From: Salmo salar
Lineage: Eukaryota
DNA: 64,000 bases
Assembly: GCF_905237065.1 (NCBI RefSeq)
Contig: NC_059455.1
Span: 34,096,034-34,160,033, forward strand
Direction of reading: 5' to 3'
Shown: positions 133 through 60,910 of the stretch, piece by piece
How positions within the stretch are numbered: position 1 is the first letter of the stretch
Layout of the letters: every line of letters begins with the position of its first letter
Program-made: the position numbers and the translations under genes
The notes under the pieces: model-generated
Database searches by the model: none
Told to the model about the DNA's origin: nothing
What the model saw: the letters and a program-made list of their open reading frames with translations, nothing else

Positions 133-1235
133 TTACATTAAACTTGTGTGTGGATCCCCTGGGTATGCAGGTGCCACGTATTGAGACACTGCACTCTCTC
201 CTATGTGAGTTCTCTGATGTGACGTCATTTTGGAGCGCCGGGTGAAGCATTTCCCACACTGTGTGCACTCATACGGTTTCTCCCCACTGTGGACCATAGC
301 ATGTCTGATCAGATTGCACTGCTTGGTGAAACTCCTGCCACACTGTTCACAGGTGTACGGTTTCTCTCCGGTGTGACTCCGGAGGTGTTCTTTGAGCTGG
401 CAGAGACGCTGGAAGCTCTTCCCACAGAAGGTGCAGCTGAACCGCCTCTCGGTGGTGCCGCCTGATCTCCACTGAGTCCTCATTCTCTTCACCATGTTAA
501 AACTACTGTGACTCAGGCTGTATCCAGAGAAGGTGGAGGTGGTGGCCATGTTTGACCCTGTCGTGCACTCACTCAATCTCACAGTCGCTTCTGAAGCCCT
601 GTATTGATGCAGCCTTGGCTGTAGAGCTAAACTATTTCCTTCATTACTTGAATTCAGCATCTCACTGCTCTGTCCCTCTGGCATCTGTTGTCTAGTTTCA
701 TCAGCCAATGTCCCTACATGTCTTTTCATGTGTTTTGCAGCACTGAACATGTTAGCATGTGGTTTCCATATAGAAGAGTGAAGTGATGGCCCTACTTCAT
801 CTGTCATAGTAGGAACAGATGGCAGCCCACTATGAGATGGGAAAATTGAGATATTCTGAGAGTACTCTTCTGTGGAATGAAAGGAGAAATCTGGGTGGCC
901 ATCAGGGTCAGTGTCTCTGCCTGGATCCACAGAGGTCCACAGCTGCCCATCAGACTCATCCATAACAAACTGGTCAGGACCTGCCAGGGTCGTGGTCTGA
1001 TCCAGCTCCTCCTCTTTCACCATCACTAGCTCTAGTGAGTCCTCATCTGGCCGGTGCTGCGCTGTGCTGAACACCTCTGTAGATGTGAGCCGGGGTGTTC
1101 CTGGTTCCTTTGGACGATCAGAATTGGGGTAATGTTCCACTGAGTCTCTGGGAGATATATTGGTTTGTGTGATGAAGTCTTCATCACAGTGCCGTTGCTC
1201 AAAGGATGGTGGTTTCCCAGGCTTGGAACCAGATT
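133..1235 (-). CDS. ZNF paralog A, terminal exon (exon 3). It encodes an acidic/Ser-rich linker plus 3 C2H2 fingers and ends '...[24 protein letters not shown]'.
   Basis: ORF 133..1293 is on the minus strand. The finger motifs are '[23 protein letters not shown]', '[23 protein letters not shown]' and '[23 protein letters not shown]' with TGEKPY linkers. The putative acceptor 'ttatgtttatccccaaatctttag|AATCTGG' (minus strand) places the exon start at 1235. The same exon recurs at 10.8, 19.9 and 49.6 kb. Confidence 0.7.
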
Positions 1236-1399
1236 CTAAAGATTTGGGGATAAACATAAAATAAACATTACAAAAGACCCTTAACAGTTGCAAAATACGA
1301 CTGCTTTAAAACTGACTGTGTGTGTACGTGCACTCCATACGCCAGAACATGAAGCACCTAATTCCAATGTAGCAATTTGGAACGTGCATACCACCACAC

Positions 1400-4395: not shown

Positions 4396-4755
4396 TGCAT
4401 TCAAATTTCTATAACCTGAAGCATGCACAAAACCATACCGGAGTTTGGCAAGTATGCTGGTGGCGTGTATGTATTTTCAAATTGTGTGTATGCTGCAGGT
4501 GATCGAAAAATGAATAAACTACAAGTACTTTGAAAAGTTGATTTTATTATACTTTCCTGTGGCTCTCACACATTCCTACATGCCAATGGACCAACCGGTA
4601 AAGTAAATTAATCCATTTTTTTACATTCTGATTTGTAGAGATCGTGAGTCAACTTTCCTGATCCAAATGCTCATTTATGCCGGACGTTGAATACAATATA
4701 ATTCAACGTCGACGTTCCAGGCTATACATTTACCATACAAAATAACTAACAGTAC

Positions 4756-4960
4756 CTTTTCGTCTGCGCGTCTTCTGCAGCTCGCTCTCCATCATTTGAC
4801 ACTTCCTTTTCAGTACATCAATATCTCGCTGGCTTTGGGTCATTTCCAAACGTATAACAGCACAGCTATCATCTACACGTTTGTTTATTTCGGCTACGGC
4901 TGCTTTAGCTAATACCTCTAGAATGGATACCAATTGCGCCTGGAAATTGCAGTTCGCCAT
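4756..4960 (-). CDS. ZNF paralog A, exon 1. It holds the ATG and a conserved N-terminal helical domain 'MANCNFQAQLVSILEVLAKAAVAEINKRVDDSCAVIRLEMTQSQRDIDVLKRKCQMMESELQKTRRRK'.
   Basis: The ATG on the minus strand is at 4958-4960. The donor is 'CGAAAAG|GTACTG' in phase 1. Homologous exons occur at 12617-12830, 27421-27626 and 52407-52620. Confidence 0.6.
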
Positions 4961-5410
4961 CTTGTCCAGCCCAAATTACAGATGCGTATTCCCTGTGTGA
5001 AGTAAATAGTATTCAATTTCCAAGATAACGTGCAAAAAACAAGTCGTGTATGTTAATAAATGACAACAATGTAGTGAAGCAGGAGATACGCGCAATTGTT
5101 CTTCTTCTATGGTATAATGGCGTTCGCATCAACGTGATGTGCATTCCGCCACCTACTGTGCGGGTGAATAATAAGGATAAAATATGAATATAAAAAACCT
5201 ACAAACTATCAAAAAAGAAATTAACCAAACAAAATCAACCTACTTTTCTGTAACATTTAATTAAAAAAAATCTAATTTCAAATCTACACAGGCTCAAACG
5301 ACTCCTGTGAGGGCGGGACGTTTCCTAGCGACAATAGTCCTTGTAGTATTTCTACGGTGAAGTCTTGAAGCCCCTGCCATCGCTCTTCAGTTCATCTCGT
5401 TAAGTTTAGT

Positions 5411-5450
5411 ATTTATTACCGTAAATATGAGAGTGCAACAGCCCTTCAAA
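5411..5450 (-). promoter_or_regulatory. Conserved upstream module of ZNF-A ('tatttattaccgtaaatatgagagtgcaacagcccttc').
   Basis: The same about 40-bp block lies 150-450 bp upstream of the exon-1 ATG in all four paralogs (13049-13092, 27769-27816, 52824-52875). In copy A the adjacent 'tgacgtaa' is mutated. Confidence 0.3.
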
Positions 5451-5574
5451 AATGTTATAAATTTGCACTGTCCAGCAAATAACAGGGTATATTCTTATTT
5501 GCATATACAGTGTAAGGTAGCCATATCTATAGACAAAAATAAATGCAGTGGCTCACTTAGTTATTAATGCATAA

Positions 5575-8724: not shown

Positions 8725-8961
8725 TAGTGTATTACATTTAGTCAAATGTTTAGTATTTGGTTCCATATTCCTAGCACGCAATGACTAAATCAAGCTTGTG
8801 ACTCTACAAACGTGTTGGATGCATGTGCAGTTTGTTTTGGGTGTGTTCCGGATTATGTTGTGCCCAATAGAAATTAATAATAAATAATGTATTGTGTCAT
8901 TTTGGAGTCACATTGTAAATGAGAAATGTTTTTTAAAAATAGGTTCTTAAAATAAAATTTA

Positions 8962-9178
8962 AATGAGGAGCCCTTAACAGTCAAACATCAAAACCATTTC
9001 ACAAATAATTAGGAGGAAAAAGCTTGTCAAAATGTCTCAAAATACCTTATGTACCAAATTTTCCCATAGAAAAAGTTAGCAAAACAATGATGCAATTATT
9101 AACTTTGTTCCATCTGGTCTGAGACGACATTAAAATTCTGTGTGGATCCCCAGGGTATGCGGGTACCATATATTGAGA
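8962..9178 (-). pseudogene. Remnant of a fifth ZNF paralog. Only the 3' flank and the last roughly 17 codons ('...[18 protein letters not shown]') remain.
   Basis: Positions 8962-9178 align to the 3' flank and terminal coding bases of copies A-D ('...gtcaaaatgtctcaaaatacctt...gtgtggatccccagggtatgcgggtacc...'). Homology stops abruptly at 9178, where a Tc1-like fragment begins. Confidence 0.6.
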
Positions 9179-9425
9179 CGTTGGAGGCGGCTTATGGTAG
9201 AGAAATTCATATTGAATTATCTGGAAACAGCTCAGGTGGACATTTCTGCAGTCAGCATGCCAATTGCACACTCCCTCAAAACTTGAGACATCTGTGGCAT
9301 TGTGTTGTATGACAAAACTGCACATTTCAGAGTGGCCTTTTATTGTCCCCAGCACAAAGTGCACCTCTGTAATGATCATGCTTCTTGATATGCTACACCT
9401 GTCAGGTGGATGGATTATCTTAACG
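9179..9425. mobile_element. 3' terminal fragment of a second Tc1-like family, '...ggaggcggcttatggtagagaaat...cacctgtcaggtggatggattatctt...'.
   Basis: It is collinear with 45400-45640 of the fuller copy at 44080-45785. Confidence 0.6.
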
Positions 9426-10030: not shown

Positions 10031-10799
10031 CGTTAGTAGGCAAACTAAGACGTCTTCCCATTCTTGATAGCCCCCCTTTTGGCGAGGAAGCACAAGTGTA
10101 TCCTAGCACTGAAGAGTTTTGAAATATCTGCCACACACCCTTTGAATCAGCTGTTGTATTGTCGTTAGAGAAAAGTATGCACACATTTAAAAACAATATG
10201 CTACTTAACCTTTTATCTATAAAATGTATTGCAAAACTAACTTCATTTTTTCATCACTTTACACATATATTTTGGGATCCACCCCGGTAAATGTCCTTTG
10301 CCTGATGGATAAGGACCATCTCATTTCATAAAAGCACATTTTCATCCACATCACTCTCCTCATCCCCTCTCCTCCATTATCTTTGACGTTTTTTTACAAA
10401 GGCGGCGAGAGAGGACTAGGGAGAAAAGACACAGGAAGGAGTTGAGCAAATCTAATTGAAAAAAAGCACCTACACATCATACTATTTTCCTTTAAGCCCC
10501 TCCCCCTTCTCTTTGTTTCTCCTGCTGTTCGTCTGGTGTCGTCTTGTTGTGATCATTTTTTTTCCTTCTACAATTGTAAAGTGATTTTGGGTCATTGAAA
10601 AGTGCTACATATAGGTCTCATGTATTAGTATTATTGATCTAAAAGCACGGACTGACTCTCAAAATCAAGCCTTCAACAGTCAAACAAGAAAAGCACAAAT
10701 CAATTGGGAGGAAAAGCTTGTCAAAATACCTTCTGTACCATATTTCCATGTAGAAAGTGTTACAGAAAAACTGAAATGATGTTCCTATTTGTTCTGAGA

Positions 10800-11899
10800 T
10801 TACATTAAACTTGTGTGTGGATCCCCAGGGTATGCGGGTACCATGAATTGAGAACCTGGACTCTCTCCTATGTGAGTTCTCTGATGTGACGTCATTTTGG
10901 AGCGCCGGGTGAAGCATTTCCCACATTGTGTGCACTCATACGGTTTCTCCCCACTGTGGACCAGAGCATGTCTGATCAGGTTGCACTGCTGGGTGAAACT
11001 CCTGCCACACTGTTCGCAGGTGTACGGTTTCTCTCCGGTGTGACTCCGGAGGTGTACTTTAAGCTGGCAGAGACGCTGGAAGCTCTTCCCACAGAAGGTG
11101 CAGCTGAAACGCCTCTCGGTGGTGCCGCCCGACCACTGAGTCCTCATTCTCTTCACCATGTTAAAACTACTGCGACTCAGGCTGTATCCAGAGAAGGTGG
11201 AGGTGGTGGCCATGTTTGACCCTGTCATGCACTCACTCAATCGCACAGTCGCTTCTGAAGCCCTGTATTGATGCAGTCTTGGCTGTAGAGCTAAACTATT
11301 TCCTTCATTATTTGAGCTCAGCATCTCACTGCTCTGTCCCTCTGGCGTCTGTTGTCTAGTCTCATCAGCCAATGTCATGACATGTCTTTTCATGTGTTTT
11401 GCAGCACTGAACATGTTAGCATGTGGTTTTCCTATAGAAGAGTGAAGCGATGGCCCTACATCATCTGTCATAGTAGGAACAGATGGCAGCCCACTATGAG
11501 ATGGGAAAATTGAGATATTCTGAGAGTACTCTTCTGTGGAATGAAAGGAGAAATCTGGGTGGCCATCAGGGTCAGTGTCTCTGCCTGGATCCACAGAGGT
11601 CCACAGCTGCCCATCAGACTCATCCATAACAAACTGGTCAGGACCTGCCAGGGTCGTGGTCTGATCCAGCTCCTCCTCTTTCACCATCACTAGGTCTAGT
11701 GAGTCCTCATCTGGCCGGTGCTGCTCTGCGCTGAACACCTCTGTAGACGTGAGCTGGGGTGTGCCTGGTTCCTCTGGACGATCAGAATTTGGGTAATGTT
11801 CCACTGAGTCTCTGGGAGATATGTTGGGTTGTGTGATGAAGTCCTCATCACAGTGCCGTTGCTCAAAGGATGGTGGTTTCCCAGGCTTGGAACCAGATT
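10800..11899 (-). CDS. ZNF paralog B, exon 3 (linker plus 3 C2H2 fingers, '...[17 protein letters not shown]').
   Basis: ORF 10800..11921 is on the minus strand. The acceptor 'ccccaaaatctttag|AATCTGG' places the exon start at 11899, and the finger motifs match copy A. Confidence 0.75.
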
Positions 11900-12063
11900 C
11901 TAAAGATTTTGGGATAAACATAAATTAAACATTATAAAAGACCATTAACAGTTGCAAAATACGACTGCTTTAGAACTGACTGTGTGTGTACGTGCACTCC
12001 ATATGCCAGAACATGAAGCACCTGACAGCAATGTAGCAATTTGGAACGTGCATACCACCACAC

Positions 12064-12222
12064 CCTCAGTCTTCCATAGACAGACAGAGCAGTGCCCCTT
12101 ATGGTCACACCCACCCTCTCCAGTGATCCTGAGCTCTTCCTTAGGGTCAGTCTTCCACACATCCTCTGCAGTCTCCTCATCTTTGATCAGTATGGGTTCA
12201 GTCTCCACTCTCTGCTTCACAT
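12064..12222 (-). CDS. ZNF paralog B, exon 2 (159 nt, in frame).
   Basis: The acceptor is 'ctgttacagcctacag|ATGTGAAG' and the donor 'GACTGAGG|GTGTGG', both in phase 1. Splicing exons 1, 2 and 3 gives an uninterrupted roughly 490-aa ORF ('...RVRRK|DVKQRVETEP...CSVCLWKTE|[10 protein letters not shown]...'). Confidence 0.55.
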
Positions 12223-12616
12223 CTGTAGGCTGTAACAGGGACTGAGGTTATTACTCAGGACACACACCATATCTAACCGTTTTCATACTCATGAATCACA
12301 CGAAAGCGGTAAATTCCCCTGATATTCCAATAACAGAATTGATCCAACAGGCCAGCCAGGTCTCTATAATTGTAAAAGGTGATGTATCACACCTGGGGTT
12401 GAGAGTCCCCTTCAACAGCCATCTTGCTGTCTCTCCACTGTGAGTTACTCCTCTGCTTGTTCAAAACAATCTTGACTGGATATGAAGATCTCTCTGATAA
12501 CATGGGGTAAAAACCTGGAAAATAATTGTATTCAGTCAATTATTAGGATTATTCACACATTTGTGTTTTTATTCATTTGTTCATGATGCGATCAAATTAC
12601 CGTGAAGAACTACTAC

Positions 12617-12830
12617 CTTTTCTCCTGACTCGTCCTCGTGTCTTCTTCAGCTCGCTCTCCATCATTTGACACTTCCTTTTCAGTACATCAATATCTCGCT
12701 GGCTTTGGGTCATTTCCAAACGTATAACGGCACAGCTATCATCTACACGATTGTTTATTTCTGCTACAGCTGCTTTAGCTAATACCTCCAGAATGGATAC
12801 CAACTGCGCCTGAAAATTGCAGCTGGCCAT
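12617..12830 (-). CDS. ZNF paralog B, exon 1 ('MASCNFQAQLVSILEVLAKAAVAEINNRVDDSCAVIRLEMTQSQRDIDVLKRKCQMMESELKKTRGRVRRK').
   Basis: The ATG is at 12828-12830 on the minus strand and the donor is 'AGAAAAG|GTAGTAG' at 12617. Confidence 0.65.
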
Positions 12831-13048
12831 CTTGTCCAGCCCAGTATTCTCTGTGAATAAGTAAATAGAATACAATTCTCTAACTAGCCAATGTGTAAGA
12901 AACAATCAGTTTATTTAAAGTTCTAACACTATGGCAAATGGCCCAACTTGGCATGTGTAAGAAGAGATCGAGTAACGCAAACAATGTTGTTAATAAAAAG
13001 CAGCAACGTTGGAAGTGGGATATTCGTATGTAATCGCACTTCCGTTCA

Positions 13049-13092
13049 ACTCATAAGGTATTACCGTAAATATGAGACCGCAACAGCCCTTC
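13049..13092 (-). promoter_or_regulatory. Conserved upstream module of ZNF-B (partial copy that lacks TGACGTAA).
   Basis: The module 'tcataaggtattaccgtaaatatgagaccgcaacagcccttc' lies about 220 bp upstream of the exon-1 ATG. Confidence 0.3.
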
Positions 13093-13739
13093 GAATGTGG
13101 TATAGTTTGACACTGGCAAAGCACCAGGGTGTATAAGCCCAACCGGCCGCAGGATGGCGGTATTATTTATTTTACGTCGTTTGTCATGTTACAAACGACG
13201 TAAAAGGAAAAGTACCGCCACCATGCGGCGGTTTGGGCTAGGTGGATTCTTGTCTGCATGTAGGGCAGCCATATCTATTTACAAGAAAATACGACAAAGA
13301 ATTCAGATAGTAAAACTTCTGTTTTTAGTTAAATAGATATGGCTACATGTTGGGGAGAGTGCAGTGGCAGACATGATTATAAATGCAACCAAGGCTATTT
13401 GCATTTATAATGCACAACGCATTGTGGTAAAATACAAAAACACTTTTCAACCATTCATACAAATTCATTGTTTATATACGATCAAATATTGTCATCTCCA
13501 TTCTCATCCACCCAACCTAATGAAACCATTCTGAAAATGTGGTATGGTATTTATTAAAGGATAGAAAAGGGAAATAACTTGTTTGACACACAGCTGGGGA
13601 ACAACGGACGATAAACTAGTTTCATGTGAACTTAAAATTAAACTTAATTTATATATTTCAAGTAACTATTGCAAACTACATGCATTATAGCTGATTTACA
13701 TTGAGGTCCTTCTCTTAGGTTTTTAAAGGCATGTACATA

Positions 13740-19030: not shown

Positions 19031-19913
19031 AATAAATTTGATTTGAACACATGGTCACTGTTACTCCTTTCGAGATGACTGATGTAAGAACAATAAATAA
19101 GAAAGAGTAAGAAGGAGATGTAAGACTGTTCCTACCTTGACTCTACACAGGCACAAGCAAGCGATGAAAAAAACAAAACACTAAATTTGTTGACTTCCTG
19201 CTCTCACTCCATTTTCTCCGCCCCTGTTGATTGGCAAATCAATGAAGAGATAAATCTTTGAAACTACTAATCATATCAATCTATTTCTCTTCTTTATTTA
19301 GCCATCTACAGCATCTAATGAACCTTGATTCAGATGACCAGTTTATACAGTTCCAGTGGTGTCAGTTTAGACAATGTGCACAGTAAGTGTAGTTTCCAGA
19401 TGTAAAATGTAAAGTTGTATAAACATGTATAGCCTATTACACAGATATTTTATTGCCTCATTTTGAGAAGACACACAGTAACTTAACATTTTGGGGCAGC
19501 AGAATAACTGACAAATCGAACTCTGAAAATCAAGTGGAATTGAGTTATTAACCTGACCTGATATGAGACTGTCCCTTGTGGCAAGACGTGACATCCCAGA
19601 TAGTCAGACACTACCTAGACAATACAGACTAAATGGATCCTACATATTATTCATCTAAAAAGCACAGACTGACTCTTTCATTGAATATAATATGGTTTTA
19701 TGATTTTGTGGTAGAAATATAAAATGTTACTAGATGTAAATAAATAGGTTATTAAAAAAAGTGAGGATCCGTGAACAGTCAAACAGGAAAACCATTTCAC
19801 AAATCAATGAGGAGGAAAAGGTTGTCAACATTTCTCAAAATACCTTCTGGACCTAAATTTACATAGAAAGTGTTTCCAAAGCATAATGCAATTATGTTCA
19901 ATCTGTTCTGAGA

Positions 19914-21016
19914 CTACATTAAACTTGTGTGTGGATCCCCAGGGTATGCAGGTGCCACGTATGGAGACACTGCATTCTCTCCTATGTGAGTTCTCTGATG
20001 TGATGTCATGTTAGAGCGCTGGGTGAAGCATTTCCCACATTGTGTGCACTCGAAGGGCTTCTCCCCACTGTGGACCACAGCATGTCTGATCAAGTTGCAC
20101 TGCTTGGTGAAACTCCTGCCACACTGTTCACAGGTGTACGGTTTCTCTCCGGTGTGACTCCGGAGGTGTACTTTGAGCTGGCAGAAACGCTGGAAGCTCT
20201 TCCCACAGAAGGTGCAGCTGAACCGCCTCTCGGTGGTGCCGCCTGATCTCCACTGAGTCCTCATTCTCTTCACCATGTTAAAACTACTGCGACTCAGGCT
20301 GTATCCAGAGAAGGTGGAGGTGGTGGCCATGTTTGACCCTGTCGTGCACTCACTCAATCTCACTGTTGCTTCTGAAGCCCTGTATTGATGCTGCCTTGGC
20401 TGTAGAGCTAAACTATTTCCATCATTATTTGAGTTCAGCATCTCACTGCTCTGTCCCTCTGGCATCTGTTGTCTAGTCTCATCAGCCAATGTCCTGACAT
20501 GTCTTGTCATGTGTTTTGCAGCACTGAACATGTTAGCATGTGGTTTCCATATAGAAGAGTGAAGCGATGGCCCTACATCATCTGTCATAGTAGGAACAGA
20601 TGGCAGCCCACTATGAGATGGGAAAATTGAGATATTCTGAGAGTACTCTTCTGCGGAATGAAAGGAGAAATCTGGGTGGCAGACAGGGTCAGTGTCTCTG
20701 CCTGGATCCACAGAGGTCCACAGCTGCCCATCAGACTCATCCATGACAAACTGGTCAGGTCCTGCCAGGGTTGTGGTCTGATCCAGCTCCTCCTCTTTCA
20801 CCATCACTAGCTCTAGTGAGTCCTCATCTGGCCGGTGCTGCTCTGTGCTGAACACCTCTGTAGATGCGAGCTGGGGTGTTCCTGGTTCCTCTGGACGATC
20901 AGAATTGGGGTAATGTTCCACTGAGTCTCTGGGAGATATATTGGGTTGTGTGATGAAGTCCTCATCACAGTGCCGTTGCTCAAAGGATGGTGGTTTCCCA
21001 GGCTTTGAACCAGACT
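19914..21016 (-). CDS. ZNF paralog C, exon 3 (3 C2H2 fingers, '...[22 protein letters not shown]').
   Basis: ORF 19914..20921 continues in frame, without a stop, to the acceptor 'ccccaaatcttag|AGTCTGG' at 21016. The 1-nt deletion relative to copy A falls on the intron side. Confidence 0.7.
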
Positions 21017-21173
21017 CTAAGATTTGGGGATAAAGATAAAATAAACATTACAAAAGACCCTTAACAGCAAAACATGACTGCTTTAGAACTGACTGTGTGT
21101 ACGTGCGCAACATATCCCAGAACATAAAACACCAATGTAGCAATTTGGAACGTGCATACCACCATACCCACAC

Positions 21174-21328
21174 AGTCTTCCATAGACAGACAGAGCAGTG
21201 CCCCTTATGGTCACACCCACCCTCTCCAGTGATCCTGAGCTCTTCCTGAGGGTCAGTCTTCCACACATCCTCTGCTGTCTCCTCATCTTTGATCAGTATG
21301 GGTTCAGTCTCCACTCTCTGCTCCACAT
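21174..21328 (-). CDS. ZNF paralog C, exon 2, with an uncertain donor.
   Basis: ORF 21048..21326 holds the acceptor 'ctgttacagcctacag|ATGTGGAG'. Copy C has a 6-nt insertion at the donor region relative to copy A, and copy D shares it. Confidence 0.35.
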
Positions 21329-21794
21329 CTGTAGGCTGTAACAGGGACTGAGGTTATTACTCTGGACACACACCATATCTAACCCTTTTCATACTCATGA
21401 ATCACACAAAAGCGATAAAATCTCCTGATAATCCAATATCAGAATTGATCCTAGTTGTTAAAGGTGATGTGTCACACCTGGGGTTGAGAGTCCTCTTCAA
21501 CAGCCAGCTCTTCGTCTCTGCACTGTGAGCTACTCCTCTGCTTTTTCAAAACAATCTTGACTGGATATGAAGATCTCTCTGATGCCATGGAGTAAAAACC
21601 TAGAAAAGAATTGTATTCAGTCAAATATTAGAGCTATTCACAAATGTGGGTTTCCCATATGCAATCAATTTACTAGCCTGGAGACCCGATGTTGAATTTC
21701 ATAAAAATAGAGCAGGAAAGTTCTCTCACAACCTCTACAAGCCAGAATGTTAAATAAAACAATAGTTTAACTTACTTTACTGGTTGTCGGTGTA

Positions 21795-22995
21795 TTTGTT
21801 CCTTTTGCAGGTACATTACATGACCAAAAGTATGTGGACACCTGCTCGTCGAACATCTCATTCCAAAATAATGGTTATTAATATGGAGTTGGTCCCCCTT
21901 GGCTGTAACAACAGCCTCCACTCTTCTGGGAAGGCTTTCCACTAGATGATGGAACATTGCTGCAAGGACTTGCTTCCATTCAGCCACAAGAACATTTGTG
22001 ATATTCGGACACTGATGTTGAGTGATAAGGCCTGGCTCGCAGATGGCGTTCTAATTCATCCCAAAGTTGTTCGATGGGGTTGAGGTCAGGGCTCTGATCT
22101 CCGATCTCAAACCATTTCTGTATGGACCTCCCTTTGTGCACAGGGGCATTGTCATTCTGAAACAGGAAAGGGCCTTCCCCAAACTGTTGGAAACACAGAA
22201 TCATCTAGAATGTCATTGTATGCTGTAGCGTTAAGATTTCCCTTCACTGGAACTAAGGGGCCTAGCCGAACCATGAAAAACAGCCCCAGATAATTATTCC
22301 TCCTCCACCAAACTTTACAGTTGGCACTATGCATTCAGGCAGGTAGCGTTCTCCTGGCATCCGTCGAACTGCTAGATGGTGAAGCGTGATTCATCACTCC
22401 AGAGAACACATTTCCATTGCTCCAGAGTCCAATGGTGGCGAGCTTCACGTCACTCCAGCCGACGCTTGGCATTGCGCATGGTGATCTTAGGCTTGTGTGT
22501 GGCTGCTCGGCCATGGAAACTAATTTCATGATGCTCCCGACGAACAGTTATTGTGCTAACGTTGCTTCCAGAGGCAGTTTTGAACTTGGTAGTGAGTTTT
22601 GCAACTGAGGACAGACGATTTTTACGCGATGCTCGCTTCAGCACTCCGCAGTCCCGATCTGTGAGCTTGTGTGGTCTACTGCTTGGCGGCAGAGCCGCTG
22701 TTGCTCCTAGACATTTCCACTTCACAATAACAGCACTTAGAGTTGAACGGTGCAGCTCTAGCAAGGCAGAAATTTGATGAGTTGACTTGTTGGAAAGGTG
22801 GCATCCTATGGAGGGTGATATGTTGAAAGTCACCAAGCTTTTCATTAATGCCATTCTACTTGCCAATGTTTGTCTATGGAGATTGCATGGCTGTGTGCTC
22901 AATTTTATACACCTGTCAGCAACAGGTGTGGCTGAAATAGCTGAATCCACTAATTTGAAGGGGTGCCCACGTACTGTTGTATATATAGTATAGGA
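21795..22995 (-). mobile_element. Tc1-like element of a third family lying in intron 1 of ZNF-C, with a degenerate transposase on the minus strand.
   Basis: Minus-strand ORFs read '...HRQTLASRMALMKS...RPHKLTDRDCGVLKRASRKNRLSSVAKLTTKFKTASGSNVSTITVRREHHEISFHGRAA' (HTH and N-terminus) and '...[41 protein letters not shown]' (DDE C-terminus). Confidence 0.75.
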
Positions 22996-27000: not shown

Positions 27001-27420
27001 CAATACTGCAAGGCAAACGTTGCATTCTATTGGAAATGAATGTACTTCTGGTGGAATTGCCCTGTCAAAACGCAAAAACCCTGTCAGTGTGATCGAGGTG
27101 TTAAGGGCATAACGTTATTTCAAGTGATATAAATCTGAACACACAACCAGCACTATGAACATTTAATTTAATGATACTTTCCTGTGGATATATTTCTCAC
27201 ATTCCTACCTGCAAATAGACTAACTGCACGGACAACCGGTAAATTAAGTTCAAATATAACTTTATTCAAAATTCTGGCTTGTAAGGTAACGTTATAGGTC
27301 GTGAGAGGAAACTTCCCTGATCCAAACGCTCATTTATGCCCGACGTTGAATCCAATTAAATTCAACGTCGGGTCTCCACTCTCCAACATTAATTTACCAT
27401 GAATAATAACACATCAACTA

Positions 27421-27626
27421 CCTTTTCGTCCTCGTGTCTTCTTCAGCTCGCTCTCCATCATTTGCCACTTCCTTTTCAGTACGTCAATATCTCGCTGGCT
27501 TTGGGTCATTTCCAAACGTATAACTGCACAGCTATCATCTACACGTTTGTTTATTTCGGCTACGGCTGCTTTAGCTAATACCTCTAGAATGGATACCAAC
27601 TGCGCCTGAAAATTGCAGCTCGCCAT
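27421..27626 (-). CDS. ZNF paralog C, exon 1 ('MASCNFQAQLVSILEVLAKAAVAEINKRVDDSCAVIRLEMTQSQRDIDVLKRKWQMMESELKKTRGRK').
   Basis: The ATG is at 27624-27626 on the minus strand and the donor is 'CGAAAAG|GTAGTTG'. Assigning it to copy C implies a roughly 6.1-kb TE-filled intron 1. Confidence 0.5.
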
Positions 27627-27768
27627 CTTGTCCTGCCCAAATTACAGATGTGTATTCTCTATGTGAAGTAGATAGTATAAAATGTGCAATAAACAATCCG
27701 TAGATGTTGATAAATGGCAACAATGTAGTGAGTGGGTAACTTGTGAGCAATCGCTTTTCCGTTCAATT

Positions 27769-27816
27769 CGTGACGTAAGTATTTATTACCGTAAATATAA
27801 GACTACAACAGCCCTT
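27769..27816 (-). promoter_or_regulatory. Conserved upstream module of ZNF-C, including 'tgacgtaag'.
   Basis: The module 'cgtgacgtaagtatttattaccgtaaatataagactacaacagcccttc' lies about 150 bp upstream of the ATG. Confidence 0.3.
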
Positions 27817-28466
27817 CACAATTGGTAGTATTAGCAATGGCCAGTAAATAACAAGGTATATTCTAGACTGCATGTAAGGTAGCAATATCTATTTACAAAA
27901 AATACGTTATATGATCAAAATAAAGAATTCGGATCGTAAAAACGTAATCTGTTTTTAAGTTAATAGATATGGCTACATGTAGGGGAGAGTGCAGTGCAAT
28001 GCAGTGGCAAACATGGTTATTAATGCATAAAATACTGTACAGTGCTTAATTTGAGCCGGTCCAGCACCTCCCTGTTTTGGACTGTTTTGTTCCGGAACCT
28101 ATTTGGCCGGATCTGGTACCTCTCGTGGCATGAAAAATAATTGTCAGTTGTATAAATTCTAATAAAAGCGATCGAAGTTCATTGAACTTAAATTTAAAAT
28201 CATTTGCCAAAGTTATAGAATAACTGCTGTCTGTTCAGAAATAAATGAAATAATTCAGAATAGCCTACTACACCATGAAAACAATTTAGCCACAGAGGAG
28301 CAATAGCTTTTCTTTAGCTTTTTTGCCAAATAACAAGGCATAGCCTATAATCACGAATGCACAGCATATCTGTCAGTGAACAGTATGCAGACAAAACAGG
28401 CCTGCAGCAAGGACCTCAACATGACAGCCACACATATGCCCAGGCTGTAAACAGAGCAACAGGCCA

Positions 28467-49084: not shown

Positions 49085-49645
49085 GAGCGACTGAACACAC
49101 TAATTCCACATTTCTCTGTTGCTCTTTAAGAAAAAACAGATTTCAGACTTGAAGGTGTGGTTCGATGTGGCAGTTAATAATGTTTGTCCCCCATGAGACA
49201 CCATAGGAACGATGCCAGTATTATGAATCTAAGATAACTCAAGAAGTCCAACTTGGACGTTTTTGCAGAGGAGATTTTAGTTGCGTAATTTTACATATAG
49301 TTAAGATGTTTGGCGCTGTATTTCTCAAGTTAAACAAAATGCAAACAAAGTGAGATGGGCAGGTGTGTCTCAACAGCTGTGTGTTCTACGGTGGATTGGA
49401 TAGAGCGCAATCACCACAGCTGTGTATCCGGTGTTAATGGGCAAGTGAGCATTGTTAAAATCAAAACCCAACCCTAAAGTAAGTTGTCAAACTTACTTAC
49501 AAAACTCAGTTTTGGATGAGACTGAATTTATGAACACAATTATTCTATTTACAATTTTGACAATAGAATAAATGTTTCTGACTCATCGGTGCTACATAGG
49601 CCTTTTTATATCAGAAGATGTTTATTGCCTTCAGTTGCGCTTTAA
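49085..49645. repeat. Insertion of about 560 bp specific to paralog D, lying exactly at the last codon of exon 3.
   Basis: Copies A, B and C read '...gagattacattaaacttgtgtgtggatcccc'. Copy D reads '...gagacaacattaaa[gagcgactgaacacac...cttcagttgcgct]ttaaacttgtgtgtggatcccc'. The termini are weakly inverted (agagcgactgaa versus ttcagttgcgct). The class is unknown. Confidence 0.35.
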
Positions 49646-50739
49646 ACTTGTGTGTGGATCCCCAGGGTATGCAGGTGCCACGTATTGAGATACTGGACTC
49701 TCTCCTATGTGAGTTTTCTGATGTGACTTCATGCTGGAGCGCTGAGTGAAGCATTTCCCACACTGTTTACACTCGAAGGGCTTCTCCCCGCTGTGGACTA
49801 CAGCATGTCTGATCAAGTTGCACTGCTGGGTGAAACTCCTGCCACACTGTTCGCAGGTGTACGGTTTCTCTCCGGTGTGACTCCGGAGGTGTACTTTGAG
49901 CTGGCAGAAACGCTGGAAGCTCTTCCCACAGAAGGTGCAGCTGAAACGCCTCTCGGTGGTGCCGCCTGATCTCCACTGAGTCCTCATTCTCTTCACCATG
50001 TTAAAACTACTGTGACTCAGGCTGTATCCAGAGAAGGTGGAGGTGGTGGCCATGTTTGACCCTGTCGTGCACTCACTCAATCTCACTGTTGCTTCTGAAG
50101 CCCTGTATTGATGCTGCCTTGGCTGTAGAGCTAAACTATTTCCAGCATTATTTGAGTTCAGCCTTTCGCTACTCTGTCCCTCTGGCATCTGTTGTCTAGT
50201 CTCATTAGCCAATGTCCTGACATGTCTTTTCCTGTGTGCTGCTGCACTGAACATGTTAGCATGTGGTTTTCCTATAGAAGAGTGAAGCGATGGCCCTACA
50301 TCATCTGTCATAGTAGGAACAGATGGCAGCCCACTATGAGATGGGTAAATTGAGATATTCTGAGAGTACTCTTCTGCGGAATGAAAGGAGAAATCTGGGT
50401 GGACATCAGGGTCAGTGTCTCTGCCTGGATCCACAGAGGTCCACAGCTGCCCATCAGACTCATCCATGACAAACTGGTCAGGACCTGCCAGGGTCGTGGT
50501 CTGATCCAGCTCCTCCTCTTTCACCATCACTAGGTCTAGTGAGTCCTCATCTGGCCGGTGCTGCTCTGCGCTGAACACCTCTGTAGATGTGAGCTGGGGT
50601 GTGCCTGGTTCCTCTGGACGATCAGAATTGGGGTAATGTTCCACTGAGTCTCTGGGAGATATATTGGGTTGTGTGATGAAGTCCTCATCACAGTGCTGTT
50701 GCTCAAAGGATGGTGGTTTCCCAGGCTTGGAACCAGATT
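49631..50739 (-). CDS. ZNF paralog D, exon 3 (3 C2H2 fingers). The C-terminus is altered to '...[14 protein letters not shown]'.
   Basis: ORF 49631..50797 is on the minus strand, and the acceptor 'ccccaaatctttag|AATCTGG' places the start at 50739. The last codon is changed by the insertion at 49085-49645. Confidence 0.7.
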
Positions 50740-50900
50740 CTAAAGATTTGGGGATAAACATAAAATAAACGTAACAAAAGACCCTTAACAGTTGCAAAAC
50801 ATGACTGCTTTAGAACTGACTGTGTGTCCGTGCGCTACATATCCCAGAACATAAAACACCAATGTAGCAATTTGGAACGTGCATACCACCATACCCACAC

Positions 50901-51055
50901 AGTCTTCCATAGACAGACAGAGCAGTGCCCCTTATGGTCACACCCACCCTCTCCAGTGATCCTGAGCTCTTCCTGAGGGTCAGTCTTCCACACATCCTCT
51001 GCTGTCTCCTCATCTTTGATCAGTATGGGTTCAGTCTCCACTCTCTGCTCCACAT
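50901..51055 (-). CDS. ZNF paralog D, exon 2, with an uncertain donor.
   Basis: ORF 50835..51131 covers it. The exon has the same 6-nt variant as copy C at the donor region. Confidence 0.35.
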
Positions 51056-51179
51056 CTGTAGGCTGTAACAGGGGACTGAGGTTATTACTCTGGACACACC
51101 ATTTCGAACGCTTTTCATACTCATAATTCACACAAAAGCAGTAAATTCTCCTGATATTCCAATAACAGAATTGATCCTA

Positions 51180-52140
51180 GAGGTCAGGGGCCTCATTTAA
51201 AACCGTGCGTACGTACAATATATACCCCAAAACATGTGTGGCCAGTTTTCACACAAAAGTTGGCATTTATAAAAACCTAACTTGGCCAGAGAATGTGCTC
51301 ACCTTCCCGCAAAAGTTAGACCATGCCAATGCAGTTTCTATGTGGTTGAAGCATTGCATTGCAAGCAGGCAAGTAGCCTAGTATTTCTTGCAAACGCGGG
51401 TTAAGATGGTTATGTTTGTTCATAACAAATAACAGGTTAATAACAAGATACAATCGTTTGCCGTTAGTGAGAAGAGAACATCAATTTCGTTTATCTTCGT
51501 ATTATAAAATAATTAGAAATAGGCATTTGCCTAGGCTATTATTTATTTAATTTCCATGATCATTGCAGATTAAATTCATCACCTTTTCTGTGATGGTTTC
51601 ATACTCATCAGGTAGCCTACAGGCCTACAACAAGTTAGATACCATTCTCCGTCTCTCATTTAATTGGCCCACTTCACAGTAGTAAATAGATAAGCTATTT
51701 CAAGTATTTTGCTCTATGCCATCTGATCCAGAGCACAGTTTAACAATAGAACAAACGATTGTAGACTACTTCTGTACTGTCTGAAAAACTGTAATTCAAC
51801 ATTTCTCCAGTAGACAATATTTAATTTGTAAACATAATAGATATTTTCATAACCTTGCCAGAATAAATCCCTCACCTTTTCTGCCCATTTTGGGTTCATA
51901 TTCATGAAGTATCCTAAAACAAATTACCACGGCATCTCTCATTTAATTGGGCCTATTGAATATACCACGGCTTTCAAACAATCAGTTTATAATGCTCGAT
52001 CACACACGCACTGTTTCACGACGGGTCTGATGTATACCTGGAAATATCGTGTGCGCCAAGTTTATGAATTTATATATGTTTGTATATGCGCAGTCTTGTC
52101 AGTAATGGCACACGCAGATAGTGTTAAATGAATGCAACAG
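51180..52140. repeat. Intronic insertion of about 960 bp specific to paralog D, with 'caggggcctc' inverted termini.
   Basis: Copies A and B read 'cagaattgatccaagaggccag.caggtctctgtaattgtaaaag'. Copy D reads 'cagaattgatcctagaggt[caggggcctcattt...cgaggcccctg]gatttctgtaattgtaaaatg'. Confidence 0.35.
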
Positions 52141-52406
52141 TTACGAGGCCCCTGGATTTCTGTAATTGTAAAATGTGATGTATCACACCTGGGGTTGAGA
52201 GTCCTCTTCAACAGCCAGCTCTTCGTCTCTCCACTGTGAGTTACTCTGCTTGTTCAAAACAATCTTGACTGGATATGAAGATCTCTCTGATGCCACGGGG
52301 TAAAAAACTGGAAAACAATTCTATTCAGTCAAATATTCACTCGTGTTTTTCTTCAGTTGCTCCATGATGCAATCAAATGACCATGAATAAGAACACATCT
52401 ATATAC

Positions 52407-52620
52407 CTTTTCTTCTGACTCGTCCTCGTGTCTTCTTCAACTCGCTCTCCATCATTTGCCACTTCCTTTTCAGTACATCAATATCTCGCTGGCTTTGGGT
52501 CATTTCCAAACGTATAACAGCACAGCTATCATCTACACGTTTGTTTATTTCTGCTACAGCTGCTTTAGCCAATACCTCCATAACGGATACCAACTGCGCC
52601 TGAAAATTGCAGCTGGCCAT
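52407..52620 (-). CDS. ZNF paralog D, exon 1 ('MASCNFQAQLVSVMEVLAKAAVAEINKRVDDSCAVIRLEMTQSQRDIDVLKRKWQMMESELKKTRGRVRRK').
   Basis: The ATG is at 52618-52620 on the minus strand and the donor is 'GAAAAG|GTATATA'. Confidence 0.6.
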
Positions 52621-52823
52621 CTTGTCCAGCCCAGTATTCTCTGTTATTAAGTAAATATGTTACAATTATGTAACTAGCCAATGTGCAATAAATAATAAAT
52701 TAATACAAAATTCTTACACTATGGCAAATGTTGATATTGGCCAAATTTGGCATATGTAAGAGATCGATTAAGGCCAAAAATGTTTCAAGTAAGAGATGGG
52801 TGCGTAATCACACTTCCGTTCAA

Positions 52824-52875
52824 CTCGTGACGTAAATATTTATTACCGTAAATATGAGACTGCAACAACCCTTCA
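52824..52875 (-). promoter_or_regulatory. Conserved upstream module of ZNF-D, including a cAMP-response-element (CRE)-like 'tgacgtaa'.
   Basis: The module 'ctcgtgacgtaaatatttattaccgtaaatatgagactgcaacaacccttc' lies about 210 bp upstream of the ATG. Confidence 0.3.
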
Positions 52876-52946
52876 AAATTGGTAGAATTTAGCGCTGGCA
52901 AGGCAATTTCTTCTTTTTTTACGCTTTAGTCACACAGGCGCCATTT

Positions 52947-54010
52947 TGAAACGAAAACGAGGCTGAGGTGGGAAATACTACAGTCGTGGACAAAAGTTTT
53001 GAGAATGACACAAATATAAATGTTCACAAAGCCTGCTGCCTGAGTTTGTATGATGGCAATGTGCATATACTCCATAATGTTATGAAGAGTGATCAGATGA
53101 ATTGCAAAGTCCCTCTTTGCCATGCATTTTACATTTACATTTTACATTTTAGTCATTTAGCAGACGCTCTTATCCAGAGTGACTTACAGTAGTGAATGCA
53201 TACATTTCATTAAAAAAATTCTGTGCAGGCCCCCCGTGGGAATCGAACCCACAACCTTGGCGTTGCAAACACCATGCTCTACCAACTGAGCTACAGGGAA
53301 GCATGCAAATGAACTGAATCCCCAAAAAACATTTCCACTGCATTTCAGCCCCAAAAGGACCAGCTGACATCATGTCAGTGATTCTCTCGTTAATACAGGT
53401 TGAGTGTTGATGAGGACAAGGCTGGAAATCACTCTGTCATGCTGATTGAGTTCGAATAACAGACTGGAAGCTTCAAAAGGAGGGTGGTGCTTGGAATCAT
53501 TGTTCTTCCTCTGTCAGTCATGGTTACCTGCAAGGAAACACGTGCCGTCATCATTGCTTTGCACAAAAAGGGCTTCACAGGCAAGGATATTGCTGCCAGT
53601 AAGATTGCACCTAAATCAACCATTAATTGGATCATCAAGAACTTCAAGGAGAGCGGTTCAATTGTTGTGAAGAAGGCTTCAGGGTGCCCAAGAAAGTCCA
53701 GCAAGAGCCAGGACCGTCTCCTAAAGTTGATTCAGCTGCGGAATCGGGGCACCACCAGTACAGAGCTTGCTCAGGAATGGCAGCAGGCAGGTGTGAGTGC
53801 ATCTGCACGCACAGTGAGGCGAAGACTTTTGGAGGATGGCCTGGTGTCAAGAAGGGCAGCAAAGAAGCCACTTCTCTCCAGGAAAAACATCAGGGACAGA
53901 CTGATATTCTGCAAAAGGTACAGGGACTGGACTGCTGAGGACTGGGGTAGAGTCATTTTCTCTGATGAATCCCCTTTCCGATTGTTTGGGGCATTACATC
54001 AGAATTTTAC
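52947..54010 (+). mobile_element. Tc1-like element (a family with 'tacagtcgtggacaaaagttttgagaatgacac' ends) in plus orientation, 3'-truncated, with transposase N-terminus (HTH).
   Basis: ORF 53484..54032 reads '...TCKETRAVIIALHKKGFTGKDIAASKIAPKSTINWIIKNFKESGSIVVKKASGCPRKSSKSQDRLLKLIQLRNRGTTSTELAQEWQQAGVSASARTVRRRLLEDGLVSRRAAKKPLLSRKNIRDRLIFCKRYRDWTAEDWGRVIFSDESPFRLFGA'. It ends abruptly at about 54010. Confidence 0.75.
53127..53301 (-). repeat. HpaI-type tRNA-derived SINE in reverse orientation, inserted into the 5' region of the Tc1-like element.
   Basis: 'tttacatttacattttacattttagtcatttagcagacgctcttatccagagtgacttacagt...ggccccccgtgggaatcgaacccacaaccttggcgttgcaaacaccatgctctaccaactgagctacagggaag' is the reverse complement of a tRNA-like head plus tail. 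It is flanked by direct 'catgca' at 53121-53126 and 53302-53307. Confidence 0.7.
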
Positions 54011-55430
54011 AAATTATTTTCTGAACAAGTAGCTCCCTTCCTATTTGAAGTCTTTTTAGAGAGTATTAAAAACAATGTTCTCCCTCCTACAATAAGTCAG
54101 GGGTTAATAACACTGATACCTAAGCCTAAAAAAGAAGTGCTGCTCGTCGATAACTGGCGTCCAATTTGTCTTCTTAATAATGACTAGAAGATATTAGCTT
54201 TATTACTTGCAAAAAGAATTAAAGAAGTCCTGGATGCAATCATTGATGAAACACAGTGGGGCTTTATGAGGAACATATTTCTAACGATGTCAGACTAGTA
54301 TTAGACATACTTGACTACTCAGACCTAATAACCGAGGATAGCTTCATATTATTTTTAGATTTTTATAAAGCATTTGACACAGTAGAGCATCAGTTTCTCT
54401 TCCACTCCCTTGAGAGACTTGGCTTTGGGGATTTTTTCTGTAAGGCTATTAAGATTCTCTATACAAATGGTAACAGCTCTATCAAATTGAAATATGGCAC
54501 CTCACCTAGATTTGAGTTAAAGAGAGGGATTAGGCAAGGTCGTCCTATCTCTCTGTACCTGTTTTTATTAATCACCCAACTTCTTTTAAATTCTTTAAAT
54601 AATAGTCCTGTACAAGGTATTTCCATAGCTGGTAAAGAAATTATTATAAGCCAGCTGGCTGACAATACTACACTTATCCTGAAAGATGCTAACCAAATTC
54701 CCATATCGATCAATGTGATACAAACCTTTTCCAAAGCGTCTGGTCTATATCTTAACATTAATAAATGTGAACTCATGGCTGTCAAAACTTGTGTGACACC
54801 TTCATATTATGGTATTCCAGTGAAAGAAGAACTTACATATTTTGGCATAACCATTACAAAGGAGGCTTACTAAATGTTAACCCTCTTATTAAAAACACCC
54901 AGAAGAAACTAAATAAATGGCTACAGAGGGACTTATCTTTAAAAGGAAGAGACCTTCAGCCTTGGTTATTAGGAATCTCCAGACTAACATATGACGCTCT
55001 ATCTTTATATCTCGACAGTAAAATAAGCAAGGAGATAGACCAGATGCTTTTCAACTTTCTGTGGAGAAACCATACCCATTACATTAGGAAAACTGTTGTA
55101 ATGAACACTTATGAGAATGGTGGGCTGAATTTTCTGGACTTTACTACCTTAAATAATACTTTTAAGATCAATTGGATAAAACAATTCCTAAGAAGAATTT
55201 TATTCCTCATCATGTCTTCTCTACTTTTGGTGGATTTAACTTCATGTTGGTTTGCAATTATAATATTGACAAAGTTCCAGTGAAACGTTCTGCTTTTCTT
55301 CGGCAGGTTATTTTGTCATGGTCCTTAATTTATAAGCATAATTTTTCTCCACACAGATATTATATATGGAATAATTGGGATATATATGTTATAAAAATAC
55401 TTCTTTGTTTTTAGAATATTGGTTCCCGAA

Positions 55431-55700
55431 ATAATATCCTATTGGTGAGCCAACTGGTAAATAATATCCTATTGGTGAGCCAACTGGTAAATAATATCCT
55501 ATTGGTGAGCCAACTGGTAAATAATATCCTATTGGTGAGCCAACTGGTAAATAATATCCTATTGGTGAGCCAACTGGTAAATAATATCCTATTGGTGAGC
55601 CAACTGGTAAATAATATCCTATTGGTGAGCCAACTGGTAAATAATATCCTATTGGTGAGCCAACTGGTAAATAATATCCTATTGGTGAGCCAACTGGTAA
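55431..55700 (+). repeat. Perfect 30-bp minisatellite in 9 copies ('ataatatcctattggtgagccaactggtaa'), in frame within the LINE ORF2 remnant (LVSQLVNNIL repeated 9 times).
   Basis: Nine identical units are visible directly. A degenerate tenth unit precedes them ('gaatattggttcccgaa'). Confidence 0.95.
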
Positions 55701-56608
55701 ATGCAGAGGGTCTTTTACTCAGTTATAAGGAATTCTTATCACTTTACAAGGTCCCTGTAACACCTAAAGATTTTGCAATTGTTTTAGATGCCATTCCCTC
55801 AGGTGTTGCTTTATTATTATTTTGGTGAGTTTCATATTTATTAAACATGTGGAACTCTAAGTACGCTGCGCCTTGGTCTACTCCTTTTGACGAGCGTGAC
55901 AGAAGATCCCACCACCAAAGGACCAAGCAGCGTGCCCAGGAGGAGCAGGGATCCTGGGCTAGGGAGAAGAGAGAGTGGAGGACGTCCTGGACCTGGGAGG
56001 AGGTAATGGCAGGGGACAAGACCCTGCCATGGAAGCAGGTGGAGACGGCGCAAGTGGAACGGCGATGCTATGAGGAGCTAGCCCAACAACGGAAGCCCGA
56101 GAGGCAGCGCCCCAAACATTTTTTTGGGGGGCACACGGGGAAATTGGCGAAGTCAGGGTTGAGACCTGAGCCAACTCCCCGTGGGGAGCGAGTGACCGAG
56201 CAAGCACCGTGTTATGCGGTGATGCGCACTGTGTCGCCAGTGCGCACTCACAGCCCGCTGCGCTCGGTGCAAGCTCCTCACTGTTGTCATGCTAGAGTTG
56301 GCCGTCAGCCAGGAAGAAGTGTGCCGGCTCAGCGTTCCTGGTCTCCAGTGCGTCTCTTCGGCCCAGGTTATCCTGCGCCAGCTCTACGCACGGTACCCCC
56401 CGTTCACCAGCACAGCCCAGTTCGTCCTGTGCTAGTGCTCCGCCCTTGCTGGGCTAAAATAACCATCCAGCCAGGACGGGGTGTGCCAGCCCTAAGCTCC
56501 AGACCTCCAGTGCGCCTCCACGGCCCAGTATACCCTGTGCCTGCTTTGCGCACCCAGTCTCCTGTGCGTCTCCTCAGTCTGGTGAGACCGGTTCCAGCTC
56601 TACGTAGG

Positions 56609-60589: not shown

Positions 60590-60910
60590 ATTTTACCAGG
60601 TAAGTTGACTGAGAACACGTTCTCATTTACAGCAATATTTTTACATTACATTTTAGTCATTTAGCAGAAGCTCTTATCCAGAGCGACTTACAGTAGTGAA
60701 TGCATACATTTCATTTCATGCATTTTTTTTGTACTGGCCCCCCGTGGGAATCGAACCCACAACCCTGGTGTTGCACACACCATGCTTTACCAACTGATCC
60801 ACAGGGAAGACTGGGGAATAGTTACAGGGGGAGGAGGGGGATGAATGAGCCAATTGTAAACTGGGGATTATTAGGTGACCGTGATGGTTTGAGGGGCCAG
60901 ATTGGGAATT

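Follow-up and report, generated by a model that had tools for sequence, protein, structure and literature searches.

Upstream of each of four tandem zinc-finger genes in a 64,000-nucleotide stretch of the Salmo salar genome (contig NC_059455.1, positions 34,096,034 to 34,160,033; hereafter the window) lies a short block of similar sequence. Does this block belong to the genes, as a part of their control, or was it carried to each of them by duplication or by a transposable element (TE)? An earlier inspection of the letters alone (the sequence-only reading) had proposed a shared host promoter module containing a site that resembles the cAMP-response element (CRE). We think it likely, with a probability of roughly 0.8, that the block is an ancestral promoter-proximal cis-regulatory module of a teleost gene encoding three C2H2 fingers, a role that we infer from position and conservation. 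The four paralogs (A to D) are encoded on the minus strand and have four exons each, as located by tblastn; the 5′ side of the ATG is therefore the side of higher window coordinates. The spliced four-exon model of copy B yields 516 amino acids, 100% identical to the NCBI Salmo salar entry ‘oocyte zinc finger protein XlCOF8.4’. The last exon is intact in all four copies, and the proteins combine three C-terminal C2H2 fingers with a conserved N-terminal region, for which no Pfam match was found. Tc1-like elements, short interspersed nuclear elements (SINEs) and reverse-transcriptase open reading frames (ORFs) fill the space between and inside the four genes.

The block had been placed at 5395-5460, 13040-13092, 27755-27816 and 52815-52875, and at each of these positions the sequence reads as described. 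When each copy was compared with the whole window by blastn the matches were the other three copies only, at 77–84% identity over 80–120 bp. ATTACCGTAAATAT occurs exactly four times in the window, in the modules only, a count reached in none of 100 shuffles. The proposed distance of ∼150–450 bp 5′ of the exon-1 ATG also holds: the first T of the 8-mer TTACGGTA stands at -464 (A), -239 (B), -168 (C) and -231 (D).

In gene sense copy D reads ...CTACCAATTTTGAAGGGTTGTTGCAGTCTCATATTTACGGTAATAAATATTTACGTCACGAGTTGAACGGAAGTGTGATTACGCAC... and the module has the following parts: TTTACGGTAAT, then a CRE-like site 1–19 bp on, then the ETS-like (ETS/GABP-type) ACGGAAGTG ∼17–35 bp on; in salmonids a CCAAT box lies ∼25 bp upstream of the TTTACGGTAAT element. 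The CRE-like TTACGTCA of the gene sense is TGACGTAA on the plus strand, which is intact in C and D only, as the sequence-only reading had it. Two or more occurrences arose in 32 of 100 shuffles, so the count of two in 64 kb is by itself within chance, yet both sites lie at homologous positions. In A and B the site is mutated in the manner previously quoted, to TTAAGTTTA and CATAAGGTA respectively. The string cttccgttcaactcg, which had been bracketed and left unnamed, is an ETS-type site (CGGAAG).

Conservation of the block stands out as claimed, and its strongest part is not the CRE. We aligned the four 5′ regions with MAFFT, the copy A insertion removed, and measured the fraction of invariant columns per segment. 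The 33-bp block GAAGGGyTGTTGyrGTCTyATATTTACGGTAAT, which ends in TTTACGGTAAT, is 82% invariant (pairwise identity 88–94%); the corresponding figures are 87% for the exon-1 coding sequence (CDS), 67% for the ETS-like segment TTGAACGGAAGTGyGATT and 32% for the CRE segment, the lowest within the module. Nearby non-coding sequence reaches 27% between the ETS site and the ATG, 20% in intron 1 and 2% further upstream of the module. Beyond the module the four copies have no sequence in common: alignment continues for another 60–170 bp in A and C only, and to some extent in B, and the sequence there holds TE insertions or insertions resembling miniature inverted-repeat transposable elements (MITEs). 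Because of this, no other promoter sequence is common to the four copies.

The same element is found far beyond the salmon. DNA around orthologs and paralogs was read from ten genomes, and in all ten TTACGGTA stands on the sense strand in the 600 bp before the ATG (Table 1). The module thus occupies the same position and orientation in seven non-salmonid teleosts and in salmonid paralogs, which supports the sequence-only reading. Upstream of the gene TTTACGGTAAT does not vary in sequence or orientation from tarpon through salmon to perch-like fishes, and the hexamer is TTACGG, never TAACGG, in 14 of 14 sequences compared. The module of an Oncorhynchus mykiss paralog, which lies on another chromosome, has 90% identity, and the upstream DNA around it does not align. 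Retention of TTACGGTA points to constraint, since the surrounding sequence is unalignable at the same distances.

An unbiased k-mer comparison of the 600-bp upstream regions of eight lineages returned TTACGGTA as the sole shared 8-mer, and the shared 7-mers and 6-mers were sub-words of it only; a shared 7-mer or 8-mer arose in 0 of 2000 dinucleotide-preserving shuffles. The sites that follow it also recur. After TTACGGTA the perfect palindrome TGACGTCA is found in Osmerus (smelt) and Polymixia, TTACGTCA in Alosa and O. mykiss, TGACGT in Acnodon and Micropterus, and a degenerate form in Megalops (CCGTCA) and Lates (ATGTCA). An ETS core usually comes next: CGGAAG in Osmerus, Megalops and Acnodon, AGGAAG in Alosa and Lates. 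The sequence reads GCATTACGGTATTTGACGTCATCAGTTGAACGGAAGAAG in Osmerus and TATTTACGGTAATTATTTTTATTTTACGTCACAACTAGACAGGAAGTTG in Alosa. TGACGT or ACGTCA falls within 30 bp after TTACGGTA in six of the eight lineages (background window frequency 0.004–0.013; simulated tail P < 5e-7), and CGGAAG within 45 bp in four of the eight (tail P ∼5e-7), the background window frequencies in these two tests being 0.3–1.6%.

Several observations weigh against this reading. Common descent of the lineages means that their independence is overstated by the shuffle statistics. In the percomorphs (Micropterus and Lates) TTACGGTA lies farther off, at -399 to -466, and the CRE is weak or degenerate; both have a second, palindromic ETS-like element at ∼-160, CTTCCGCGGAAG in Micropterus (locus L005, ∼4836-4850) and CCGCGGAAG in Lates (locus L009, ∼4828-4840). 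The percomorph module may thus be a more distal element, and the ETS-like element at ∼-160 the actual core promoter there. Finally, copies A and B and their Salvelinus counterparts keep intact ORFs after loss of the CRE, which is on that account dispensable for retention of the gene.

The sequence-only reading had given the CRE the leading part; it is one of three ancestral elements, and the one most decayed among the salmon copies. That the CRE itself is ancestral we take from the perfect palindrome carried by smelt and Polymixia. Copies C and D, with TTACGTCA, match the consensus at 7 of 8 positions with the CGTCA half-site intact; in A and B the site is destroyed. The distance of the site from the ATG is 150–450 bp, and a CRE is typically found within ∼250 bp of the TSS (transcription start site). 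The ETS/GABP consensus (a GGAA core within CCGGAAGT(G)) is matched at 8 of 9 positions by ACGGAAGTG in B and D, is degenerate in C (ACGGAAAAG) and is lost in A (ACTGAAGAG). C, D, Coregonus and O. mykiss have the CCAAT pentamer, which as an NF-Y box stands ∼60–100 bp upstream of the TSS; it was not found in A or B, nor in the module region of the non-salmonids read.

Among known classes of promoter and site the module comes closest to those TATA-less promoters of vertebrates in which CRE/ATF, ETS (GABP/ELK-type) and NF-Y CCAAT sites are combined: it has the CRE (TGACGTCA or TTACGTCA), the ETS core (CGGAAGTG) and, in salmonids, the CCAAT box, clustered in ∼90 bp, at most a few hundred bp from the ATG, with conserved sites that contain CpG. 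In contrast to those promoters, the element under strongest conservation, TTTACGGTAAT, fits none of these classes of site. MYB and OVOL sites (consensus YAACGG, and TAACGGT / CCGTTA, respectively) resemble TTACGGTA in ACGGT, in a CpG-containing core and in promoter-proximal use; however, the TTACGG of the TTACGGTA sequences is a mismatch at a core position of both consensuses. A PAR-bZIP site, also suggested by the sequence-only reading, did not stand up. The PAR-bZIP/E4BP4 D-box (RTTAYGTAAY) shares a half-site TTAC/GTAA with the TTACGTCA of salmon and Alosa, and TTACGGTAA amounts to a D-box with one extra central base; but TTAYGTAA occurs in no copy or ortholog, every sequence has GTCA in place of GTAA as its second half-site, and the ancestral form here is the CRE palindrome TGACGTCA. 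A 9-bp spacing is not that of a known bZIP site. In a literature search for TTACGGTAA and TTACCGTAA the top-ranked of 567 matches looked like vector or primer sequences (CRISPR, reporter, viral-vector) and gave no pointer to a transcription-factor motif; such matches may be explained by TTACGGTAAATGGCCCGCC, which lies at the start of the cytomegalovirus (CMV) enhancer. Searching by gene names likewise returned no information on the gene family.

How might such a module work? In the direction of transcription TTTACGGTAAT would come first, binding an unknown factor; the CRE/ATF-type site, ancestrally TGACGTCA and now TTACGTCA in salmon C and D, would recruit CREB/ATF; the ETS/GABP-type ACGGAAGTG would recruit an ETS factor and the salmonid CCAAT box NF-Y. 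These activators would drive a TATA-less promoter, with the TSS probably downstream of the ETS site and before the ATG. The factor names are putative, taken from consensus matches, and the TSS position, promoter activity and expression differences among the copies are likewise predicted from the sequence. Tandem duplication in salmonids copied gene and promoter together, and decay of the sites has since been uneven: every site survives in D, the ETS site is weakened in C, the CRE is gone from B, and A has lost both CRE and ETS site and gained an insertion of 300 bp. Expression is accordingly predicted to differ among the paralogs, all four of which retain TTTACGGTAAT and intact coding exons.

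The copy A insertion, which accounts for the position of its module at -464, is specific to the copy A lineage and common to a Salvelinus namaycush paralog (locus L001, 17512-17831, 81% identity); it may serve as a replacement promoter for a copy that has neither CRE nor ETS site. The Salvelinus ortholog of copy B (L001, 9762) has its module in the same state as copy B. Some of the site changes are CpG-to-TpG transitions, as in TTATGTCA in Coregonus and the change from CACGAG to TATGAG in copy B. In Coregonus clupeaformis (locus L002, 9729-9834) the module is split by a ∼35-bp insertion flanked by two copies resembling TAC(T/G)T(A/-)TGTCACGAGTTG; the upstream CRE copy has decayed to TTATGTCA and the downstream copy keeps ACGTCACGAGTTGAACGGAAGTG.

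The graded loss of CRE and ETS site in four tandem paralogs (D intact, then C, B and A) would amount to a natural experiment in post-duplication regulatory divergence in salmonids, and the module offers a testable promoter model for an uncharacterised teleost zinc-finger gene family. Promoters that combine CRE and ETS sites are textbook material, and no general view is changed by this one.

Table 1. Positions of coding exons, modules and component sites in the window, and of TTACGGTA relative to the ATG in the other fishes.
Feature	Position	Strand	Remarks
Copy D module	52795..52905	-	most complete; CCAAT 52878-52882, GAAGGG..TTTACGGTAAT block, TTACGGTA 52844-52851
Copy D sites	52828-52835; 52811-52819	-	CRE-like TTACGTCA; ETS-like ACGGAAGTG; all intact
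Copy C module	27743..27844	-	CCAAT 27821-27825, TTACGGTA 27787-27794, intact CRE-like site 27771-27778
Copy C ETS site	27754-27762	-	weakened to ACGGAAAAG
Copy B module	13030..13123	-	TTACGGTA 13062-13069; intact ETS-like ACGGAAGTG 13037-13045; CCAAT lost
Copy B CRE remnant	13052-13060	-	destroyed; deletion of ∼9 alignment columns
Copy A module	5376..5470	-	TTACGGTA 5417-5424 intact; CCAAT lost
Copy A lost sites	5400-5408; 5383-5391	-	CRE, TTAAGTTTA; ETS, ACTGAAGAG in gene sense; both destroyed
Copy A insertion	5078..5375	-	∼300 bp, between module and exon 1; holds GC-box-like GTCCCGCCCTC
Copy A exon 1 CDS	4756..4960	-	205 nt, then GT donor; ATG at 4960
Copy B exon 1 CDS	12617..12830	-	214 nt; ATG at 12830
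Copy C exon 1 CDS	27422..27626	-	205 nt; ATG at 27626
Copy C exon 2	21478-21600	-	∼5.8 kb downstream of exon 1, across TE-filled intron 1
Copy D exon 1 CDS	52407..52620	-	214 nt; ATG at 52620
Copy A last exon	133..1293	-	three C2H2 fingers, intact ORF
Copy B last exon	10800..11899	-	located by tblastn
Copy C last exon	19914..21017	-	intact, no in-frame stop
Copy D last exon	49631..50740	-	intact ORF
TTACGGTA, Osmerus	-197	sense	
TTACGGTA, Polymixia	-176	sense	
TTACGGTA, Micropterus	-455 and -399	sense	
TTACGGTA, Lates	-466	sense	
TTACGGTA, Megalops	-143 and -393	sense	
TTACGGTA, Alosa	-246	sense	
TTACGGTA, Acnodon	-199	sense	
TTACGGTA, Salvelinus	-239 and -464	sense	two genes
TTACGGTA, Coregonus	-272	sense	
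TTACGGTA, O. mykiss	-330	sense	paralog on another chromosome (L010)

Beyond the promoter module as described, a more specific idea is that TTTACGGTAAT, with its near-palindromic TTAC-G-GTAA, is the site of an uncatalogued transcription factor and a distinct teleost promoter element; its invariance across the fishes is in keeping with this, and we rate it as rather unlikely. Osmerus mordax has a second TTACGGTAA (locus L003, ∼1660, minus strand), which adjoins a reversed ETS site, CACTTCCGC, and precedes by 122 bp the start codon of the zinc-finger gene next door, an unrelated one that encodes 1716 amino acids; this hints at a more general teleost promoter motif. A bolder variant, in which the family's own three-finger protein would bind TTACGGTAA and regulate its own gene, is not supported. 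The three fingers are highly conserved in the protein alignment, and from their residues at positions -1, 3 and 6 (R/Q/E, K/N/R, Q/S/S) a simple recognition code predicts ∼NNA-GAG-CAG and not TTACGGTAA, though this test is a weak one.

Should transcription begin farther upstream, the block would be transcribed, either as 5′ untranslated region (UTR) or as a downstream promoter element. At 143–466 bp from the ATG it lies within the range of 5′ UTR lengths, and its orientation relative to the gene is fixed in every species. However, its short units match DNA-binding consensuses (the CRE palindrome, the ETS core) and are variably spaced, and nothing common to the four copies lies upstream, so that a farther shared promoter is unlikely. 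Nor does the block look like a structured RNA: the predicted fold of the copy D module is less stable than that of shuffles (z = +1.45), and an Rfam scan of the whole window at gathering score gave no match at the modules, only two UnaL2 3′ elements of long interspersed nuclear elements (LINEs) and a tRNA-like SINE head. We regard a transcribed element as improbable.

Still less probable is that the block is a passive, functionless remnant of a young segmental duplication. The greater identity of the gene bodies (90–96%) than of the module as a whole, and the decay of the CRE in two copies, are what such a remnant might display. It is contradicted, however, by the 33-bp block, 82% invariant beside adjacent non-coding DNA at 2–27%, and by the core elements, which are kept at the orthologous place from tarpon to perch-like fishes when nothing else upstream aligns.

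The neighbourhood of the orthologs raises a further alternative, to which we attach equally little credence, namely that the module is a bidirectional element that ancestrally served a head-to-head RhoGAP gene as well. The family has expanded in salmonids: in protein searches most non-salmonid teleost species give a single match, and the non-salmonid loci read hold one gene copy, except that of Polymixia, with a second zinc-finger gene just downstream. (The NCBI name of the Osmerus ortholog is taken from the zebrafish locus si:ch211-155e24.3.) Upstream of the ortholog is a minus-strand gene, RhoGAP where Pfam-annotated; downstream is an immunoglobulin-domain gene (Osmerus, Polymixia, Megalops) or a kinase gene (Micropterus, Lates). 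RhoGAP and zinc-finger gene are head to head in Osmerus, Micropterus and Lates, a minus-strand gene of unassigned identity holds the same position in Polymixia, Alosa and Acnodon, and the CDS of the neighbour starts 1.4–3.7 kb from the zinc-finger ATG. CRE and ETS sites are, moreover, typical of bidirectional promoters. But the salmon module was copied with the zinc-finger gene only (RhoGAP coding sequence, sought in the window, was not found, the matches being TE-like only), its orientation and distance follow the zinc-finger ATG and not the neighbour, and at the O. mykiss locus L010 the RhoGAP gene lies downstream on the same strand.

Least credible of all is that the module is part of a TE or dispersed repeat that brought each copy its promoter. 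The window does abound in Tc1-like elements, UnaL2-tailed SINEs and LINE or reverse-transcriptase ORFs, and MITE-like palindromes lie 50–200 bp from the module. But the 64 kb contain exactly four copies, every one of them upstream of exon 1 and at the homologous position, with none elsewhere in the window or in the ten loci read (∼225 kb examined), the position is orthologous in distant teleosts, inside conserved RhoGAP / zinc-finger / immunoglobulin-gene synteny, and no terminal inverted repeat, long terminal repeat or target-site duplication marks the module bounds. This alternative is excluded as far as indirect tests allow; as judged from these comparisons the module is probably an ordinary host promoter and not a transposon fragment. 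It recalls the TE-derived promoters of expanded zinc-finger clusters in that a tandem family sits in a TE-rich region with TEs right beside the promoter, but differs in predating the expansion, being present in distant teleost orthologs, and not being dispersed.

TEs have inserted around the module and none into its core. Just upstream of the module, copy B alone has a 104-bp near-perfect palindrome (13136-13239), MITE-like, with 49-nt arms that are 84% complementary and a 6-nt loop. The inverted repeat AGCCATATCTATTTA ... TAATAGATATGGCT, its arms ∼50 nt apart, is found at 13267-13344 and 27879-27976, with one arm also at ∼5505-5530; lying 100–200 bp upstream of the B and C modules, it would be a MITE-like insertion of greater age or else an additional upstream element. 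A Tc1-like element begins upstream of the copy D module from ∼52975. Two SINE copies on the minus strand (53147-53293 and 60651-60704) have a tRNA-like head (Rfam tRNA, 53236-53293) and a UnaL2 LINE 3′ tail (RF00436), and one of them is ∼300 bp beyond the copy D module. Farther along, at 55429-55702, a 60-bp unit is repeated in tandem without a mismatch (100% identity at offsets 60 and 120), in an ORF in which VSQLVNNILL is repeated many times.

The gene bodies and the 5′ regions of the four copies have had different histories, it would seem. Gene bodies, including introns, are 90–96% identical between copies (1-2075, 10694-12569, 19794-21811 and 49642-51187; C and D, 95.6%), whereas the 5′ regions are 78–81% identical (4496-5470, 12363-13123, 27121-27901 and 52159-52905). 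The 5′ regions pair A with C and B with D, because the members of each pair share one indel of 9 nt, at the end of exon 1, and another of 12 nt, upstream of the ATG; the gene bodies pair otherwise. As the bodies are so similar, in pairings unlike those of the 5′ regions, the pattern suggests gene conversion or concerted evolution in the gene bodies, stopping short of the promoters. A fragment of a fifth paralog (8937-9184, minus strand) comprises the extreme C-terminal coding end and 3′ flank only, with no exon 1 and no module.

In all four copies the start codon lies within GACAAGATGGC(G/C) (4955-4968, 12825-12838, 27621-27634 and 52615-52628), which matches the YY1 core consensus AAnATGGC and may be a YY1 site, or perhaps mere Kozak context; a functional site would place the TSS close to the ATG. 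The fingers themselves differ among A to D at DNA-contact residues: position 6 of finger 1 (E/V), position -1 of finger 2 (K/Q), and positions -1 (R/Q) and 3 (K/N/S) of finger 3. Single-copy orthologs from other clupeocephalan teleosts hardly vary at these positions, and Megalops differs; the tandem copies of salmon may be diversifying in DNA-binding specificity.

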